A stretch of DNA of 64,000 nt from Thermoanaerobaculales bacterium (GCA_035358815.1 DAOPQC010000009.1:2405-66404); one strand, 5' to 3'. Numbered from the stretch's first letter, positions 29,021-56,354 are shown. A program made the numbers and translations. The notes: a model not told the origin generated them from the sequence alone.

Positions 29021-29069
29021 GGGTCCTCCCAAAAGGCGTGGCGCCCCTCAGTGTAGCGCGGCGGCCCCC

Positions 29070-29278
29070 TCGCCCGCACCCGCGTCCGCGCCCGCTTCCG
29101 CGCCCCCGCCGTTGGGATGTCTCTCGTTCCCGTTCCCGTCCCCGTTCCCGTACCCGATGGCCGTTCGGGGTGGATTGAGTTCGTACGTGAAATTTGGAGA
29201 TTGCTGCGACGTCTGGGCGGCGTGCGGCGATCCGGGAACGGGATCGGGGTGGGGCCCTGGACCCTGACCCCGATCCCC
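29070..29278. repeat. Mosaic intergenic repeat locus A (beta C-array, 34-nt alpha module, unique core, G-arm, 11-bp hairpin)
   Basis: CCCGCN-type array at 29070-29110. Alpha module cgttcccgttcccgtccccgttcccgtacccgat at 29125-29158. Inverted partner atccgggaacgggatcggggtgggg at 29230-29254. Perfect hairpin gggatcggggt (29240-29250) / accccgatccc (29267-29277). Confidence 0.85.
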
Positions 29279-29370
29279 CAACTCCTGGTCAGGCGAATGC
29301 GCTGCAGCGACCCGGAAGCCGGAGGGCGACTGACCTCTGAGGATCGTAGACCGCACCGGGAGGGGGCGCG

Positions 29371-32672: not shown

Positions 32673-32758
32673 CTCGGACCTTCTCCTTCAAGCGCCTCCG
32701 GGAGGCGGCACGGGTCGCATATTCTAATCGAAAGTCCGAATCCAGGCTAGTGCCAGGT

Positions 32759-33045
32759 TCAATTCCGGGCTCAATTCCGGGCTCCAGACCCCGTTTCGAT
32801 TCCGGACTCTGGGCCGGTGCCCGTCCCCGCTTCCGCTTCCCCTTCCGCTTCCGCGCCCGGACGGTGCTCAGGACGCGGGAAAGCTGCGGGGGTCTTCGAC
32901 TTGCCACCGTGCTGGGCGGTTCGCTTCCAATGACCTACCCCCCAGGTCATCGGTGACCTTGTCGGCCCACACGGGCCCTGGGGGTGCTCAGAATGACCAC
33001 GGACAGAGTCGGAAGCGGGCGCGGAAGCGGGCGCGGACGCGGGCC
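32759..33045. repeat. Mosaic intergenic repeat locus B (12-nt tandem, C-arm, 150-nt core with hairpin, G-arm)
   Basis: tcaattccgggc x2 at 32759-32782. C-arm CGCTTCC-type at 32818-32858. Core hairpin atgacct/aggtcat at 32930-32950. G-arm at 33011-33045. Its bases 33017-33043 are the exact reverse complement of 29079-29105. Confidence 0.85.
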
Positions 33046-33077
33046 GGTCGGCCGACCCAACCTCCGGCCCCCACGGC

Positions 33078-33918: not shown

Positions 33919-34500
33919 CTAGCGCGCGGTGATGACGAAGTGGGCGCGCCGGTTGAGGCGCCACGCCTGTTCGCCGCTGCCGACCTCGAACGGCCTCTCC
34001 TCGCCGTACGAGATCGTGCGCAGGCGCTCGGCCCCGACGCCGAGGAAGATCAGGTAGTCGCGCACCGCCGCCGCCCGGCGCTCACCGAGCGCGAGGTTGT
34101 ACTCGCGTGTGTTGCGTTCGTCGCAGTGGCCCTCGATCAGGATCTGGATCGTGCGGTGCTGCTGCAGCCAGGCCGCGTTGCGGGCCAGCGCATCGCGGTA
34201 CTCGGGCTTGATGTCGTAGAGGTTGGTGTCGAAGAAGATGTCCTCGAGGTAGCCGCCGGCGTTGAGCAGCGCGAGGTCCTCGGGCAGCTCTTCGCGGACC
34301 TCCTCGGAAACCAGGGGCTCGGCAGTCGGCTCGCCGACGATCTCCTCCTCGATGCCCTCGGGCCCCTCACCGGTCCCGGGCGTGGTCGCGGTCGGCGTCG
34401 GAGCGGTCGGGGGCGGCACCTTGGTGCTCTTGCAGGCACCGAGGGTGGCCAGGAGGAGCACGGCGATCAGGGCTGCAGCGAGACGGGAAGTGGGTCTCAT
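33919..34500 (-). CDS. pal: Peptidoglycan-associated lipoprotein Pal (OmpA-like domain)
   Basis: Lipobox LLATLGAC. OmpA-C motifs: IFFDTNLYDIKPEY, IEGHCDERNTREYNLALGERRA, and ISYGEE. Confidence 0.9.
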   Translation of the reverse strand: MRPTSRLAAALIAVLLLATLGACKSTKVPPPTAPTPTATTPGTGEGPEGIEEEIVGEPTAEPLVSEEVREELPEDLALLNAGGYLEDIFFDTNLYDIKPEYRDALARNAAWLQQHRTIQILIEGHCDERNTREYNLALGERRAAAVRDYLIFLGVGAERLRTISYGEERPFEVGSGEQAWRLNRRAHFVITAR

Positions 34501-34627
34501 TCGAGGCCTCCTTGACGGTCACTCTACCAGCCCGGATCCGGGCTCACAAGCTCTTGAGAGCTGGTCTCGGCGGGGCGGTGTGGAATCGACGCGCGATGTG
34601 CCCGATGTCACTGGAGGAGAGGATATA

Positions 34628-34768
34628 GGGGATAGGGAATAGGGGATAGGGGAGAGGGGAGAGGGGAGAGGGAACAGGGGATAGGGGAGAGGGAGTAGGG
34701 GAGAGGGCCTAGCTGCCTTGTGGGGTAGCCATCCTGGCTGCCTTGTGGGGTAGCCATCCTGGCTGCCC
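34628..34768. repeat. Mosaic intergenic repeat locus C (12 G-tracts in GGGGA(T/G)A heptamer array + 25-nt tandem repeat)
   Basis: 34628-34707 holds 12 runs of G3-4 separated by 3-4 nt. 34713-34762 is ctgccttgtggggtagccatcctgg x2 (period 25) plus a partial third unit. Confidence 0.9.
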
Positions 34769-34770
34769 AG

Positions 34771-35358
34771 CTACGGGTTCGCGTCGTCATCCGCGAGGAG
34801 CCCGCCGCCGGGACGGTCGAGCCGGCCGGCCCGGTGGAGCTTGGCGAGGTAGTCGTAGACGACGATCGAGCCGGCCACCGCGAGGTTGAGGGAGGGCACG
34901 AGGCCCCACTGCGGGATCTGGACGACGGTCGCCGCGGTCGCGACCAGCTCCTCGGGGATGCCGCCGAGCTCGGCCCCGACCAGGAAGCACGGGCGATCCG
35001 GGTAGCTCGCCTCGAACAGGCCGACCGCGCGCCGGTGCAGCTCCACCGCCACCAGCTGCCAGCCACGCTGCTCGAGGTGCGACCGGAAGGCGCCGGCGTC
35101 GCGAAGGTGGAGAACGGTGGTGTAGAGCTCGGCGGTGCGCGCGGCCTCGACGTTCCAGTCACGCTCCCCGACCAGCAGCACCTCGGTCGCGGCGGTGGCG
35201 TGGGCGGTGCGCACCAGCGAGCCGACGTTGTGCTCCTTGGAGATGTTCCAGGCCGCGATGGCGAACGGCCGCAGCCCGTCGCGGTAGTCCTGGCGGCGGC
35301 GCTGCCGGCGGTCGGCGCGGCGCGCGGCGGTCCACGCGGCCTTCTTGGGATCCACCAT
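34771..35358 (-). CDS. TrmH/SpoU-family RNA 2'-O-methyltransferase
   Basis: SpoU motifs: NVGSLVRTA, FLVGAELGGIPEE, and IPQWGLVPSLNLAVAGSIVVYD. Confidence 0.75.
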   Translation of the reverse strand: MVDPKKAAWTAARRADRRQRRRQDYRDGLRPFAIAAWNISKEHNVGSLVRTAHATAATEVLLVGERDWNVEAARTAELYTTVLHLRDAGAFRSHLEQRGWQLVAVELHRRAVGLFEASYPDRPCFLVGAELGGIPEELVATAATVVQIPQWGLVPSLNLAVAGSIVVYDYLAKLHRAGRLDRPGGGLLADDDANP

Positions 35359-35434: not shown

Positions 35435-35514
35435 CATGGTGGGTATCCCCACCCGGACTTCTTCAGTGGGTTTCGCGGCCGTAAAGTCCGTTGAACACCC
35501 GCGGTCCGAAGGGA
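35400..35514 (-). ncRNA. Candidate ~115-nt structured RNA or attenuating leader (family unknown)
   Basis: Bracketed by the promoter and terminator above. Internal helices: gtcc/ggac, cggactt/aagtccg (7 bp), and ggtggg-gata-cccacc. No convincing ORF. Confidence 0.35.
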
Positions 35515-36063: not shown

Positions 36064-36125
36064 GGCTCCATGATACCGAGCCGAATGAGGTGCGGAGCGC
36101 CCGTTGTCGATTCTGACCTTCTCTC

Positions 36126-36278
36126 GGGAACGGGAACGGGGACGGGAACGACAGCTGGCCGTTGTGGGGTCGCCATCCTGGCTGCCTTGTGGGGTAGCCA
36201 TCCTGGCTGCCCGGAAGCGGGCGCGGGCGAGGGGGCGGGCGGGGGCCCTACCCCCTATTCCCTACATCCCATCCCCTC
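36126..36278. repeat. Mosaic intergenic repeat locus D (alpha G-array, 25-nt tandem, beta G-array, inverted gamma array)
   Basis: gggaacgggaacggggacgggaac at 36126-36149. 36153-36212 is ~95% identical to 34711-34768. ggaagcgggcgcgggcgagggggcgggcggggg at 36213-36245. C-rich ccctaccccctattccctacatcccatcccctc at 36246-36278. Confidence 0.9.
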
Positions 36279-36281
36279 AAG

Positions 36282-36307
36282 AAAAAGGTGACCGCCCGAA
36301 GGCGGTC
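36282..36307 (-). terminator. Probable Rho-independent terminator of the FecR-like gene
   Basis: The minus strand reads gaccgcc-ttcg-ggcggtc, then acc and TTTTTCTT. It lies 40 nt past the stop at 36347. Confidence 0.55.
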
Positions 36308-38491: not shown

Positions 38492-38564
38492 CGTCCACCT
38501 CCCGTTCCGCCAACAGGCAGTGCAACCGACGTGCCAGCGGGATTTCGGGAACGCGGTGCGTTCA

Positions 38565-38940
38565 CCCGTTTCCGTTTCCGTCTCCGCGCCCCTGCCCGAG
38601 ATGGCGCTCGTGCACCGTGCGGTCTCATCGGGGACGGAGACGGGCACGGAGACGGGCAGGGAGACGGGCAGGGACGCGGGCGGCGGCCATTTGACCTGTC
38701 ACCGGTCACCGATCACTCTCCCGGAGGCGGGAACGGGAACGGGAATCCGGCTTCGCCTTCCGGCTCCGTTCGGCGAACTCCGCCGTGACGAGTCGGCTCC
38801 GCCGTGACAAGCGGGGACGGGCACCCTTCGACTCGCGGCGCTGCGGCGCCGCTCGCTCAGGGCAGGCCCCTCGGGCTCGGAAGCGGAAGCGGGCGGGCGC
38901 CCAATCCCCCAGATCCCAGATCCTGGCCGGGTGGGGGCGG
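38565..38940. repeat. Mosaic intergenic repeat locus E
   Basis: C-arm cccgtttccgtttccgtctccgcgcccctgcccg at 38565-38598. 31-nt core. G-arm (GGAGACGGGCA-type) at 38630-38686. gggaacgggaacgggaat at 38729-38746. ggaagcggaagcgggcgggcgc at 38879-38900. cccagat x2 at 38908-38921. Confidence 0.8.
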
Positions 38941-44153: not shown

Positions 44154-45944
44154 TCAGGGGCGCACGAGCCAGCCGGCGGCGGTCCCGTCCTCGAACCCGC
44201 TGCCGAAGATCAGCGAGCCCGGGCCGGAGGGAGTCGGAGTCGGCGGCGGGGTGGGCGTGGCCACCGGCGTGCTGGTCGGCGTGGCGGTGGGCGGTACGGG
44301 CGTCGTCGTCGGAGTCGGGGTGGGAGTGTGGGTCGGCGGCGGCGGGGTGAGTGTGGGTGTGCTGGTCGGCGGCACCGGCGTCGCGGTGTCAGTGGCGGTG
44401 GCAGTGGGTGTCGGGGTGCTGGTCGGCGGCAGCGGCGTCGCCGTGGCGCTTGGGGTCGGCGTGCGGGTCGGTGTGGCGGTCGCGCTGCTGGTCGAGGTCG
44501 GGGTGCGGGTCGGTGTGGCGGTCGGCGGCACCGGCGTCGCTGTGGGGCTCGGCGTCGCCGTGCGGGTGGGCGTCGCCGTGGCGGTCGCGGTGTTGCTCGG
44601 GGTGCGGGTCGGCGTGGGCGTCGCGGTCCGGGTGGGCGTCGGCGTGCTGGTGCGAGTGGGCGTCGCCGTCGGCCCGCTGGTCACCGACAGCTCGAGCCGG
44701 TAGAGCTGGGCGCTGTCGGTGGCGTCGCCGGCGAGCTCGACGAAGTAGGTTCCCGGCCCGCTGGGCAGTGGCACGCTCGGCAGCGCCTCGGGCAGGCCGG
44801 CGCCGTTGGCGTCCGCGAACGCGAGCTCGGTGGTCCCGTTGACGTCGAGCACCCGCAGCGACAGGTCGTGGATGGCGAGCGAGTCGAACGAGCTCCCCGC
44901 GGTGCAGCTGCCGTTCGGGTTCTGGGGGCCGCTCAAGTAGGTCCAGCCGGTCGGCGTGACGGTGATCGAGAGCGAGGCGCCGCTGCCGACGGTGAGGCTG
45001 TAGTCGTCGTAGTCGGAGTCGTCGTCGACCGACAGGTTGTCGATGGTGAGCAGGCCCGTCGGCGTCCCCAGGGGGTACGCCGTGGACGGGTCGTCGTCGT
45101 GCTCGGCGCCGTCGCCGTAGCCGCGGTTGGCGGCCAGGATGTCGTCGTGCTGGGGCCCGTCGAAGGCGCTCGAGTAGTAGGGCTCCATCAGCTTGGTCTG
45201 GTTGACCGGGCAGACATGCTGCAGCCCGAGACCGTGGCCGTGCTCGTGGGCGACCACGTTGCGCAGCCGCAGCGAGTTGCCGGTGGTCACGGAGTAGAAC
45301 GAGTCGCCGGTGTCGATGACCATGTCCCCGACGTCGGGGTAGAAGTTGTAGCCGAGGATGCCGGAGTTGCCGTCGATGGTATGGCCGCCGAAGCGCACGT
45401 CGCCCCGCACGCCGAGTGATCCCGCCGAGTTGACGAAGGCCGCGCCGTCATCGCTCGGCTGGTAGAGGTAGCTGATGCCGGTCAGCTCGCCCCAGCGATC
45501 CAGCACCTGCTGGAGCAGCGCCAGCCAGGTGGCCTCGTCGCCGTAGATCCCGGTCAGGAAGGCGCGCAGGTTGCTTGGCGAGCTCGGCTCACCGGCGTAG
45601 CCGGGGATCGCGGTGCCGTCGGGGACGACGCTCCAGGTCAGGGTGGTGGGGTCGCCCTGGCCGAGCCCGCTGCCGTTGCTGGCCGTGCTCGACCAGCGGT
45701 TGGAGTCCGGGAACTGGTACTCGCCGAGCGGCGGGGCGGAGAGCGAGTGGGTCACCCGGGCCAGGGCGGCCTTCGCGATCGCCTGCTCGACGTACCACTG
45801 CGGGGTGCCGTCCTTGAAGCACAGCGCCGGCGCGGGCGGGGGGCCCGGCTGGGCCGGCGGGCGGTCCGCTGCGGCAGCGCAGGCGGCCGCGAGGAGCATC
45901 GCGATTCCGAGCGCCGCGGGCGCCCCGGGGCGTGCCGTGCTCAT
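44154..45944 (-). CDS. Secreted metzincin (matrixin/M10-like) zinc protease with PPC-like domain and ~150-aa Pro/Thr linker
   Basis: ATG 45944. Signal peptide ...[10 protein letters not shown]. Zinc site [13 protein letters not shown] (HExxHxxGxxH). Pro/Thr repeats. C-terminal tail [19 protein letters not shown]. Confidence 0.8.
44229..44680 (-). repeat. Intragenic low-complexity Pro/Thr (TPTxT) repeat-coding region
   Basis: Encodes [55 protein letters not shown]... The mirror-frame ORF 44065..44703 (GV-rich) is its artefact. Confidence 0.85.
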
Positions 45945-49786: not shown

Positions 49787-49924
49787 CGTTCCCGTTCCCG
49801 TGCCCGCTCCCGTACCCGATGGCGGATTCCTGCCCACTATTGCGCGGAGCCGTGGGAGCCAAGCCGGTTTCACCTCCGTCCTCTTCTGCAATCGGGAACG
49901 GGGACGGGAACGGGAGCGGGAACG
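49787..49924. repeat. Mosaic intergenic repeat locus F (34-nt alpha module, 70-nt core, inverted 34-nt alpha module)
   Basis: cgttcccgttcccgtgcccgctcccgtacccgat at 49787-49820 is 32/34 identical to 29125-29158. atcgggaacggggacgggaacgggagcgggaacg at 49891-49924. The arms are ~85% complementary. Confidence 0.9.
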
Positions 49925-51967: not shown

Positions 51968-51973
51968 CGCTCA

Positions 51974-52410
51974 GGGGATAGCGATGAGGGGATAGGGGCT
52001 AGGGCCCCTGCCCGCCCGCTGCCGGCTGCACGGACGGCTTCGTTCCCGTTCCCGTTCCCGTGCCCGCGCCGATCCGCCTCCGCGCGCGACGTCGTTCCCG
52101 TTCCCGTTCCCGTTCCCGAACCCGCGCCCGCTTCCGCGCCCGGTTCCGAGCGACGTTTCGCTCCCCTTCCCGTTCCCGTCCCCGTTCCCGATCCCGTGTC
52201 CGCTCCCGCTCGTTCGCTCCGTCCTCGAGAGCGCTTCGCGCCGATTCTCTGGAAGCGCTCCCCGAGGGTGCCACCTTTGGCGATTTCGGGTCCTGAGCAA
52301 TTTGTCAGGAGCATCGTCGTCCCGAAATCGCCAAAGATGGCACGCCCGCGGGAGGCGCTTCCCTCGCTCTCTCCTCGTCCCCGGGGAGCGGAAGCGGGTG
52401 CGGGCGCAGC
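51974..52410. repeat. Mosaic intergenic repeat locus G (gamma G-array, three C-rich hexamer arrays, 113-nt imperfect palindrome, beta G-array)
   Basis: Gamma array at 51974-52004. C-arrays at 52041-52070, 52093-52147 and 52164-52212. Palindrome at 52251-52363 with 23-nt arms (52268-52290 / 52321-52343, 1 mismatch) and apical hairpin tcctga/tcagga. gagcggaagcgggtgcgggcgc at ~52385-52410. Confidence 0.9.
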
Positions 52411-55684: not shown

Positions 55685-55759
55685 GGGAGGTTAGCTCAGG
55701 GGTAGAGCACCTGCCTTACACGCAGGGAGTCGTGGGTTCAAATCCCCCACCTCCCACCA
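55685..55759 (+). tRNA. tRNA-Val (anticodon TAC)
   Basis: Cloverleaf: acceptor gggaggt/acctccc, D-arm gctcaggggtagagc, anticodon stem cctgc/gcagg with loop ctTACac, T-arm gtggg-ttcaaat-cccac region, encoded CCA. Confidence 0.9.
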
Positions 55760-55780
55760 CCCCTGAGACGGCACGATTGC

Positions 55781-55857
55781 GGGGTCGTAGTTCAGCTGGT
55801 TAGAACGCCGGCCTGTCACGCCGGAGGTCGAGGGTTCGAGTCCCTTCGGCCCCGCCA
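55781..55857 (+). tRNA. tRNA-Asp (anticodon GTC)
   Basis: Acceptor ggggtcg/cggcccc, D-arm gttcagctggttagaac, anticodon stem ccggc/gccgg with loop ctGTCac, T-arm gaggg-ttcgagt-ccctt, discriminator G, encoded CCA. Confidence 0.9.
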
Positions 55858-55872
55858 ACCCAGCCAAACCGA

Positions 55873-55900
55873 GCCGCCCTTCGGGCGGCTTTTCGTTTGT
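55873..55900 (+). terminator. Rho-independent terminator after tRNA-Asp
   Basis: gccgccc-ttc(g)-gggcggc followed by ttttcgtttgt. Confidence 0.75.
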
Positions 55901-56006
55901 CTGGTGGCGGGGCCGAAGGGACTCGGTCACCGCGGAGCCAGCGGGCGGACGTACGCCGCCCACCGCCCTCTCCGGCCCGGCTGACGCCGGGCCTGCGACC
56001 CCCACG
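55886..56006. repeat. 121-nt direct repeat, copy 1 (contains inverted copy of tRNA-Asp 3' end)
   Basis: Base-for-base identical to 56234-56354 (checked by eye over all 121 nt). 55905-55925, tggcggggccgaagggactcg, is the reverse complement of tRNA-Asp 55837-55857. Confidence 0.95.
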
Positions 56007-56078
56007 GCTACGTCCGCACTCCGCTGCCTATCGCGGTGTGCAAGTCCCTTCCCTCGTGACCCCGGCGACCCTGGCGGG

Positions 56079-56130
56079 CGGCTGTTTTCGTTCCGTGGCG
56101 GGGCCTTCGGGACTCGCAGCACCGTCACCT
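56079..56130. repeat. Degenerate middle copy of the tRNA-Asp-derived repeat
   Basis: cggctgttttcgttccgtggcggggccttcgggactcg matches the start of the 121-nt unit, with gaag replaced by ttcg and a different continuation. Confidence 0.7.
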
Positions 56131-56233
56131 GCGCGCTGTCACGGGCAGCCCGCGTTGCGGCCTGCCGGTTCCAGCCTGCGCAGCTGCCGGCGGTGTCGAG
56201 CCCTTCCCTCGTGACCCCGGCGACCCTGGCGGT

Positions 56234-56354
56234 CGGCTTTTCGTTTGTCTGGTGGCGGGGCCGAAGGGACTCGGTCACCGCGGAGCCAGCGGGCGGACGT
56301 ACGCCGCCCACCGCCCTCTCCGGCCCGGCTGACGCCGGGCCTGCGACCCCCACG
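56234..56354. repeat. 121-nt direct repeat, copy 2
   Basis: Identical to 55886-56006 at an offset of 348 nt. Preceded by the 32-nt block 56201-56232, identical to 56046-56077. Confidence 0.95.

Follow-up and report, generated by a model that had tools for sequence, protein, structure and literature searches.

A twelve-tract G-rich heptanucleotide array at the edge of the pal control region in a Thermoanaerobaculales bacterium: a probable lineage-specific expansion of a known microsatellite type

The short tandemly repeated repetitive (STRR) sequences of cyanobacteria are heptanucleotides with units such as CCCCAAT, and the REP/BIME mosaics of enterobacteria are built from short dispersed palindromic units combined with other short motifs. 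The closest counterpart to the locus described here is the set of G-rich heptamer simple sequence repeats (SSRs) reported by Rehm, Wurmthaler, Li, Frickey, and Hartig (PLoS One, 2015; PMC4692102), with units GGGAATC in Xanthomonas and GGGGA(C/T)T in Nostoc PCC7120; cyanobacterial heptanucleotide repeats had first been seen in Calothrix PCC7601 (PMC4692102). These arrays run head-to-tail for 2–26 units, are strongly intergenic with a preference for spacers between co-oriented ORFs, and occur singly or as inverted pairs; their position is constant between relatives, and their length and sequence change. They are unlinked to surface or virulence genes or to mobile elements, and no function was identified for them, nor a regulatory role found even with transcriptomes (PMC4692102). 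Heptanucleotide promoter SSRs of the Haemophilus influenzae hmw genes are reported to be phase-variable (PMC8262952, PMC12721329), and TAACTGA intergenic heptamer direct repeats are reported in Beggiatoaceae and cyanobacteria (PMC4679880).

The window—the whole 64,000-nt stretch of DNA analyzed, from a member of the Thermoanaerobaculales (Acidobacteriota; GCA_035358815.1, DAOPQC010000009.1:2405-66404) with a GC content of ~70%—contains a G-rich heptamer array in a 270-nt spacer between the stop codon of a trmH-like gene and the start codon of pal, both on the minus strand, as a preliminary description of this DNA had proposed. The features of the spacer and its flanking genes are as follows, with positions counted from the first letter of the window:

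34771–35358, minus strand: TrmH/SpoU-family RNA methyltransferase gene (Pfam PF00588, E 6e-24; so named by NCBI), its stop codon 63 nt from the array
34708–34767, plus strand: REP-like 25-mer TTGTGGGGTAGCCATCCTGGCTGCC in 2.4 tandem copies, immediately downstream of the trmH stop
34705–34717, no strand assigned: junction GGGCCTAGCTGCC, the local form of a GG(G/C)CC junction seen beside heptamer arrays elsewhere in the lineage
34628–34707, plus strand: core heptanucleotide array, 12 units of GGG(G/A)A(T/G/C)A, giving 12 G3–4 tracts
34614–34627, plus strand: two decayed units, GAGGAGA and GGATATA, at the promoter-proximal end of the array
34501–34611, minus strand: conserved pal upstream block (five-lineage alignment, 86% mean column identity)
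34611–34607, minus strand: GTGAC, an invariant island in the pal upstream block
34549–34544, minus strand: predicted −35 element TTGTGA (consensus and conservation), an invariant island, with a 17-nt spacer to the −10
34526–34521, minus strand: predicted −10 element TAGAGT (consensus and conservation), an invariant island
34511–34507, minus strand: ribosome binding site GGAGG, an invariant island; the pal ATG is at 34500
33919–34500, minus strand: pal, OmpA-family peptidoglycan-associated lipoprotein (Pfam PF00691, E 1.8e-19; the identical protein is named Pal in NCBI)

The core array comprises 8 GGGG and 4 GGG tracts with one start per 7 nt. The 80 nt and 12 G-tracts given in the preliminary description match exactly at 34628–34707 on the plus strand; the two decayed units lie outside the span it described. 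The loops, characterized there as 3–4 nt of A, T, and G, do have that length, and their composition is as stated with the exception of one loop (AACA), which contains a C. The units of the array are GGGGATA, GGGGAGA, GGGAATA, GGGAACA, and GGGAGTA (short form GGGGAKA); positions 1–3 are G and position 7 is A in 12/12 units, and positions 4–6 are variable. Tandem Repeats Finder places the repeat at 34625–34707 with a period of 7, 11.9 copies, and 81% matches, and additionally recovers longer registers of 14 nt (83% matches) and 35 nt (87% matches), both of which reach 34616.

G4Hunter scores the array at 2.11 over its 80 nt, the top-scoring and longest match in the window. The pattern GGGGAKAGGGGAKA, allowing up to two mismatches, was matched 14 times in the window as compared with 2.1 ± 1.3 times in shuffled sequence. 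The longest chain of G3+ or C3+ tracts separated by loops of at most 7 nt contained 12 tracts, versus 7 in 100 dinucleotide shuffles of the window, and chains of at least four tracts numbered 18, versus 10.0 ± 2.9 expected from these shuffles. The array is also the longest in ~305 kb of lineage sequence, where the runner-up has 6 tracts. The description of the array as extreme therefore holds locally; it does not hold among bacteria, where GGGGAKA arrays of 13–34 tracts occur. A coding reading was rejected: the G strand meets TAG in all frames, and the sole ORF spanning the array (34608–35162, minus strand) is an out-of-frame shadow of trmH. A CRISPR array was likewise rejected, as the 7-nt units abut directly without spacers, whereas CRISPRs consist of 23–50-nt repeats with unique spacers of similar length. 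An Rfam search across the whole window reached the gathering score for two tRNAs only, with no RNA family at the array. An assembly artefact was rejected on the basis of the same array length in four independent assemblies (SPAdes, MEGAHIT; different samples).

The array shares with the Xanthomonas and Nostoc heptamers a 7-nt unit composed of a G3–4 tract and a 3–4-nt A/T-rich loop, head-to-tail repetition, at least four consecutive G-tracts with short loops, and an intergenic location between co-oriented ORFs with many copies per genome. The other traits of that class given above, including occurrence both singly and as inverted pairs and the lack of a link to surface or virulence genes or to mobile elements, are seen here as well. 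Its units do not match the consensus sequences of that class (GGGNATC or GGGGA(C/T)T), and it is best described as a sequence variant with the same architecture, having an A(T/G)A loop rather than ATC, A(C/T)T, or ATT. It differs further in its host, an uncultured member of the Thermoanaerobaculales (Acidobacteriota) outside that study; in its distance from the start codon (128 nt, as compared with within 50 nt); and in that heptamers of this lineage are usually joined to C-rich hexamers via GGGCCCC, though the pal-upstream array itself is without that arm. Like STRR sequences, it consists of tandem C4/G4-tract heptanucleotides of a kind dispersed in intergenic DNA without known function, and (GGGGATA)n arrays of cyanobacteria such as Chamaesiphon account for many of the matches listed in a cross-genome scan (below); STRR sequences, however, are defined for cyanobacteria, whereas this host is an acidobacterium of 70% GC and the units are degenerate and mixed. 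The whole spacer, with 25-mer clusters and short motifs arranged past a stop codon between co-oriented genes, resembles a REP/BIME mosaic, but the heptamer array is not palindromic and has no Watson–Crick fold, and the hairpin-forming 25-mer is a separate neighbor. As in hmw, a heptanucleotide tandem repeat lies upstream of an envelope-protein gene; unlike hmw, the array has imperfect units, shows no unit-number polymorphism between strains, and is located far upstream of the core promoter. The TAACTGA repeats, for which a regulatory role is only speculative (PMC4679880), also form lineage-wide intergenic heptamer sets of few to many copies, but are unrelated in sequence and without G-tracts or G4 potential. 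The locus thus adds an uncultured acidobacterial lineage and an A(T/G)A loop variant to the carriers of G4-capable heptamer microsatellites.

Read along the minus (sense) strand, the spacer proceeds from the trmH stop through 2.4 copies of the 25-mer and a GGCCC junction to the array, which shows its C-rich face on this strand, and then through a block of 113 nt to the pal ATG; ybgF/cpoB, rpsT, and purC follow downstream of pal. Conservation of the pal upstream block ends precisely at the start of the array. The G-rich face is the plus strand and hence the template strand for both trmH and pal, and the C-rich face is the sense strand, in agreement with the preliminary description. Its proposal that the C-rich strand forms part of the pal mRNA was not borne out: the array is located 79–158 nt upstream of the phylogenetically conserved −35/−10 pair, a promoter assigned from consensus and conservation, which places it outside the predicted pal 5′UTR, where it could be transcribed only by read-through from trmH. 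The trmH–pal spacer contains no terminator-like hairpin with a T-run, only REP-like hairpins. Terminator-like hairpins with T-runs were observed at 36307–36290 (minus strand), after a FecR/DUF6600 gene, and at 35435–35405 (minus strand), upstream of trmH.

The orthologous spacer was compared between the window and four related lineages whose flanking genes are 81%–97% identical at the nucleotide level; two close relatives in which trmH–pal synteny is lost (L006–L008 and L012) were left out of this comparison. As in the Xanthomonas and Nostoc class, the orthologous position is kept and length and sequence have changed: a heptamer-periodic C-rich tract is present at the site in all five lineages, and the distance from the junction to GTGAC is 98 nt in the window versus 43 nt (L135/L136), 36 nt (L010/L011), 29 nt (L133/L134), and 20 nt (L009), three of these lengths being exactly 7 nt apart. 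The relatives carry 2–5 degenerate heptamer units each. Tract counts fall below four in two of the four related lineages (three in L009 and two in L133), and L135 has at least four tracts with loops of 8–10 nt; G4 capability is thus not conserved at the orthologous site. The order of elements is collinear across the lineages—REP-like element, GG(G/C)CC, heptamer-periodic tract, and conserved GTGAC block—which suggests that the array grew in place in the window species rather than arriving by insertion. The preliminary description would have counted against its reading a lack of strand or position bias together with absence of such arrays from related genomes; the outcome goes halfway against it, in that the relatives have no array at the orthologous site, where they show only 2–5 degenerate units.

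At the strain level, five independently assembled contigs from different samples (L001–L005; 3.7–6.6 kb each, 99.86%–100% identical) were compared with the window; the locus is present in GCA_035417745.1 and in several metagenome assemblies, and NCBI lists proteins identical to those of the window under Thermoanaerobaculales bacterium MAGs. No indels were found in these contigs over the parts of spacers that they cover. Four of them (L001–L004) span the array and all keep 12 units, and the fifth stops within the array at window position 34676. The absence of indels and the constant unit number argue against a contingency locus. A 6.6-kb alignment of L001 (MAG GCA_035417745.1) to the window contains four differences, three of them A>G substitutions in array loops (34660, 34667, and 34683). 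Together with the end of the L005 contig, this clustering could reflect local hypermutation, or else sequencing or assembly error caused by a repeat prone to G4 formation; in the cross-genome scan, too, many arrays lie at contig ends. The contig break in the array and the clustered A>G changes in one MAG provide a practical warning to assemblers and annotators.

The array has the 12 tracts, 3–4-nt loops, and G4Hunter score expected of an intramolecular G4 former, which supports the G4-forming capacity claimed in the preliminary description; the special status that was attached to it did not hold up. When G4s are allowed, ViennaRNA predicts two G4 blocks in the array at −40.6 kcal/mol (0 without G4), and the same G4-aware minimum free energy averages −34 ± 11 kcal/mol in mononucleotide shuffles of the 80 nt, placing the observed value within one standard deviation. 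A special arrangement favoring G4 formation was rejected on these grounds; because the predicted energy is similar to that of shuffles, the G4 potential is due to composition and not to arrangement. The Watson–Crick fold of the array offers no competing structure (MFE −0.9 kcal/mol, z 0.03). Published (GGGGATT)3GGGG and (GGGGACT)3GGGG oligonucleotides fold into G4s in a K+-dependent manner, their T1/2 in KCl exceeding 95°C, and the C-rich complements of GGGGA(C/T)T oligonucleotides form i-motifs up to pH 6.5 (PMC4692102). These Nostoc-type units differ from those of the array only in the final loop base, and in vitro G4 folding of the array is very likely by analogy, since near-identical oligonucleotides fold. 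When single-stranded, the G-rich strand would be expected to fold into as many as three three-tetrad G4s in tandem. Support for the G4 reading extends to physical potential and no further. A mirror-symmetric tract of pure purine/pyrimidine, 26 nt in length, is also present mid-array (34649–34674; GGGGAGAGGGGAGAGGGGAGAGGGAA).

The preliminary description had further noted recurrence of the heptamer elsewhere in the window, and both of these additional arrays are real. They and related features in the window are as follows:

36246–36278, minus strand: second heptamer array, five tracts, G-rich on the sense strand, after the FecR/DUF6600 terminator-like hairpin; followed by GGGCCCCC and C-rich hexamers
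51972–52004, plus strand: third heptamer array, ~4 units, G-rich on the sense strand, starting 5 nt past a stop codon; followed by GGGCCCC and long (CGTTCC)n arrays
38898–38924, minus strand: variant (GGGATCT)n array, G-rich on the sense strand, 18 nt past a stop codon; followed by C-rich hexamers
36162–36211: second site of the REP-like 25-mer
29064–29290, 36122–36279, 38563–38925, 49787–49924, and 51972–52240: composite spacers, as defined below

The window arrays occupy both strands and both orientations relative to transcription, and the common strand or transcription bias raised in the preliminary description was not found; the window's GC skew is too slight to indicate a direction of replication. 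The 64-kb window has four heptamer arrays; lineage sequence totaling ~305 kb has 14, of which 11 are intergenic by rough gene calls. More broadly, most window spacers carry G3-tract repeats on either strand, including (GGGAAC)n, (CGGAAGCGGGCG)n, (GCGGGC)n, and heptamers, and spacers of the lineage are mosaics of 6-, 7-, and 12-nt G-tract repeats and the REP-like 25-mer. Each 25-mer contains a hairpin, GGTAGCCA-TCC-TGGCTGCC (z −1.65). Its exact 22-mer core was identified in 28 metagenome contigs (L137–L164), where the 25-mer forms tandem or inverted clusters, with a variant TTGTAGCGCAGCCATCCTGGCTGCC; these are always surrounded by arrays of (GGGAAC)n and (CGGAAGCGGGCG)n, and they often terminate in GGGCCCTA and C-rich heptamers. 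The combination of the 25-mer with G-tract repeats is a BIME-like mosaic.

In the usual composite of this lineage, an ORF end is followed by (GGGGNNN)n, GGGCCCC, and C-rich hexamer arrays, in that order, both in the window (as listed above) and outside it (L137, L140, L143, L146, L156, and L160). Several spacers have a unique core that, on the sense strand leading up to the start codon, follows a C-rich array and precedes a G-rich one. By rough gene calls, the 5′ end of the G strand faces the nearest ORF boundary in 11/12 heptamer arrays; the 12-tract array upstream of pal has this polarity but lacks the C-hexamer arm, and its spacer contains no complementary arm. A terminator-like hairpin between G-heptamer and C-hexamer arms was tried and rejected: folded as DNA, six composites gave z-scores of −0.9 to +2.0, no better than shuffles.

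Considering the above, the array is probably a lineage-specific slippage expansion of a known type of heptamer microsatellite, in an unconstrained spacer at the edge of the pal control region and with no specific function. At the distal edge of the Thermoanaerobaculales pal regulatory region, a short stretch of heptamer-periodic sequence, already old, would have served as the starting point; the intergenic DNA of the genome is widely colonized by 6-, 7-, and 12-nt G-tract repeats. Growth most likely proceeded in registers of 7, 14, and 35 nt, through slippage during replication or unequal exchange, for which the weakly constrained spacer between the trmH stop with its REP-like hairpins and the conserved pal promoter block would have provided room. 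The locus would then represent a clean case of in-place expansion, from 2–5 to 14 units, beside a conserved promoter block. Nothing points to a cellular use of the array: its length is not conserved across lineages and does not vary among strains, and neither the core promoter nor the 5′UTR includes it. Any effect would likeliest be non-specific, such as template-strand structure hindering trmH read-through into pal or absorption of negative supercoiling upstream of the pal promoter. Some observations sit less easily with neutral expansion. The persistence of the tract, though not of its length, in five lineages could mean that it is maintained. The GGG cores are intact at 36/36 positions—a count from which decayed edge units are left out by definition—while unit positions 4–6 vary, and the L001 changes fall in loops only, which mildly suggests preservation of G-tracts. 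The polarity of the lineage's arrays toward ORF boundaries is not predicted by a purely neutral model.

Among the alternatives to slippage expansion, it is unlikely that the array functions through folding in vivo, with a G4 on the template strand and an i-motif on the sense strand regulating pal by a read-through block or via promoter supercoiling. The high G4 potential, the in vitro folding of close analogues, the C-rich heptamer tract kept at this site in five lineages, and the intact GGG cores are all consistent with such a role. Set against these are the failure of relatives to conserve at least four tracts with loops of at most 7 nt (L009, L133, and L135), the location of the array, which lies 5′ of the −35 and is not part of the pal transcript, the occurrence of the window's heptamer arrays in both orientations relative to transcription, a predicted energy no better than that of same-composition shuffles, and the fact that no regulatory role could be identified for the Xanthomonas and Nostoc heptamers even where transcriptomes were available (PMC4692102). 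We consider it rather improbable that the array belongs to a REP/BIME-like mobile or recombining mosaic, having arrived with, or spreading along with, the adjacent 25-mers and other modules. Both REP-like clusters in the window do lie within 35 nt of a heptamer array, the 25-mer of the 28 metagenome contigs is embedded in G-tract arrays and often terminates in C-rich heptamers, the composite of G-heptamers, GGGCCCC, and C-hexamers is recurrent, and other spacers carry species-specific inserts between inverted SSR arms. Yet every relative has the heptamer seed at this position, irrespective of REP content, with the collinear order pointing to in-place expansion; the two window loci differ in how the 25-mer is oriented with respect to the heptamers; and no target-site duplication or transposase was seen. 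A related and broader proposal, which we regard as a long shot, is that the array is one oversized module of an undescribed, lineage-wide gene-boundary "punctuation" in Thermoanaerobaculales. Such a cassette may consist of an ORF end, (GGGGNNN)n, GGGCCCC, (CCCGNN)n, and often the REP-like 25-mer, with the G-rich 5′ end nearly always facing the ORF; a specific RAYT-like, recombination, or repair activity could deposit or preserve these cassettes, or selection could favor them as G4/i-motif insulators separating transcription units. The Xanthomonas and Nostoc arrays show the same polarity, reported without explanation (PMC4692102), and if the punctuation proposal is true, this would imply a mechanism shared across phyla.

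Other non-B or protein-binding roles are very improbable, whether as H-DNA triplex at 34649–34674 or as an array for cooperative binding of a nucleoid or regulatory protein to GGGGA iterations. The mirror-symmetric purine/pyrimidine tract is visible in the sequence, and intrastrand triplex repeats are reported as abundant in prokaryotes (PMC4666352); however, the homopurine stretch reflects this species' own AGA units, and relatives and other arrays have ATA, TCA, and CTA loops that break its purity. For a bound protein, the 7-nt period is not in helical phase, and no known candidate presents itself. Least probable of all, and very much so, is a contingency locus in which changes in unit number tune pal expression as a phase switch or rheostat. 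Here, an SSR does lie upstream of a cell-envelope gene, and heptanucleotide promoter SSRs reportedly act in this manner in the Haemophilus hmw genes (PMC8262952); but 12 units are found in 4/4 spanning populations and no indel in five aligned strain contigs, the array lies neither between −35 and −10 nor in a 5′UTR or coding sequence, heterogeneous units suppress slippage, and pal is a housekeeping component of the Tol–Pal system. Phase variation is essentially excluded. Slippage expansion thus remains the preferred reading of the 12-tract array, which on its own matters little; the wider pattern of spacers saturated with 6-, 7-, and 12-nt G-tract repeats and REP-like units and showing consistent polarity toward ORF ends could be of greater interest.

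A scan of one genome per species with the pattern (GGGGAKA)3GGGG indicates that this type of array is taxonomically widespread, with at least 120 loci in at least 14 phyla and, among the matches listed, arrays of up to 34 tracts. The matches listed come from cyanobacteria (especially Chamaesiphon), Planctomycetota, Gemmatimonadota, Chloroflexota, several proteobacterial classes, Acidobacteriota (including a Thermoanaerobaculaceae MAG), Actinomycetota, Verrucomicrobiota, Myxococcota, and others. Inverted pairs were also observed in other lineages, in which (GGGGATA)n is followed by a GC-rich palindromic core (e.g., GGCCGGCGCGCCGGCC) and (TATCCCC)n. Such pairs occur at L027, L116, and L119 (one gammaproteobacterial MAG) and at L021, L104, and L121; each arm has up to 22 units, the pairs often follow directly on a stop codon, and very long hairpins or terminator-like structures could result.

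Several further repeats were observed in the window. The ybgF–rpsT spacer (32673–33077) contains a species-specific segment of ~190 nt that is missing from the orthologous spacer of four relatives, the promoter-proximal part of the spacer being conserved. The arms of this segment are inverted SSRs at 32812–32859 (C-rich) and 33010–33045 (G-rich) that are 78%–85% complementary, and the segment looks MITE-like; the repeat arrays of this spacer are likewise confined to the window species. On the minus strand at 44154–44700, tandem repeats with a 99-nt period and strong local GC skew correspond to a Thr/Pro-rich C-terminal linker; the long minus-strand ORF that encodes it has a metalloprotease-like HEXXH region, and the repeats are ordinary low-complexity coding sequence. 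Two direct repeats lie directly 3′ of the tRNA-Val and tRNA-Asp genes (55685–55857): one of 125 nt, whose copies (55882–56006 and 56230–56354) are 348 nt apart and share 99% identity, and one of 41 nt (56046–56086 and 56201–56241). These could be a tandem duplication or the att-like repeats of an integrated element.
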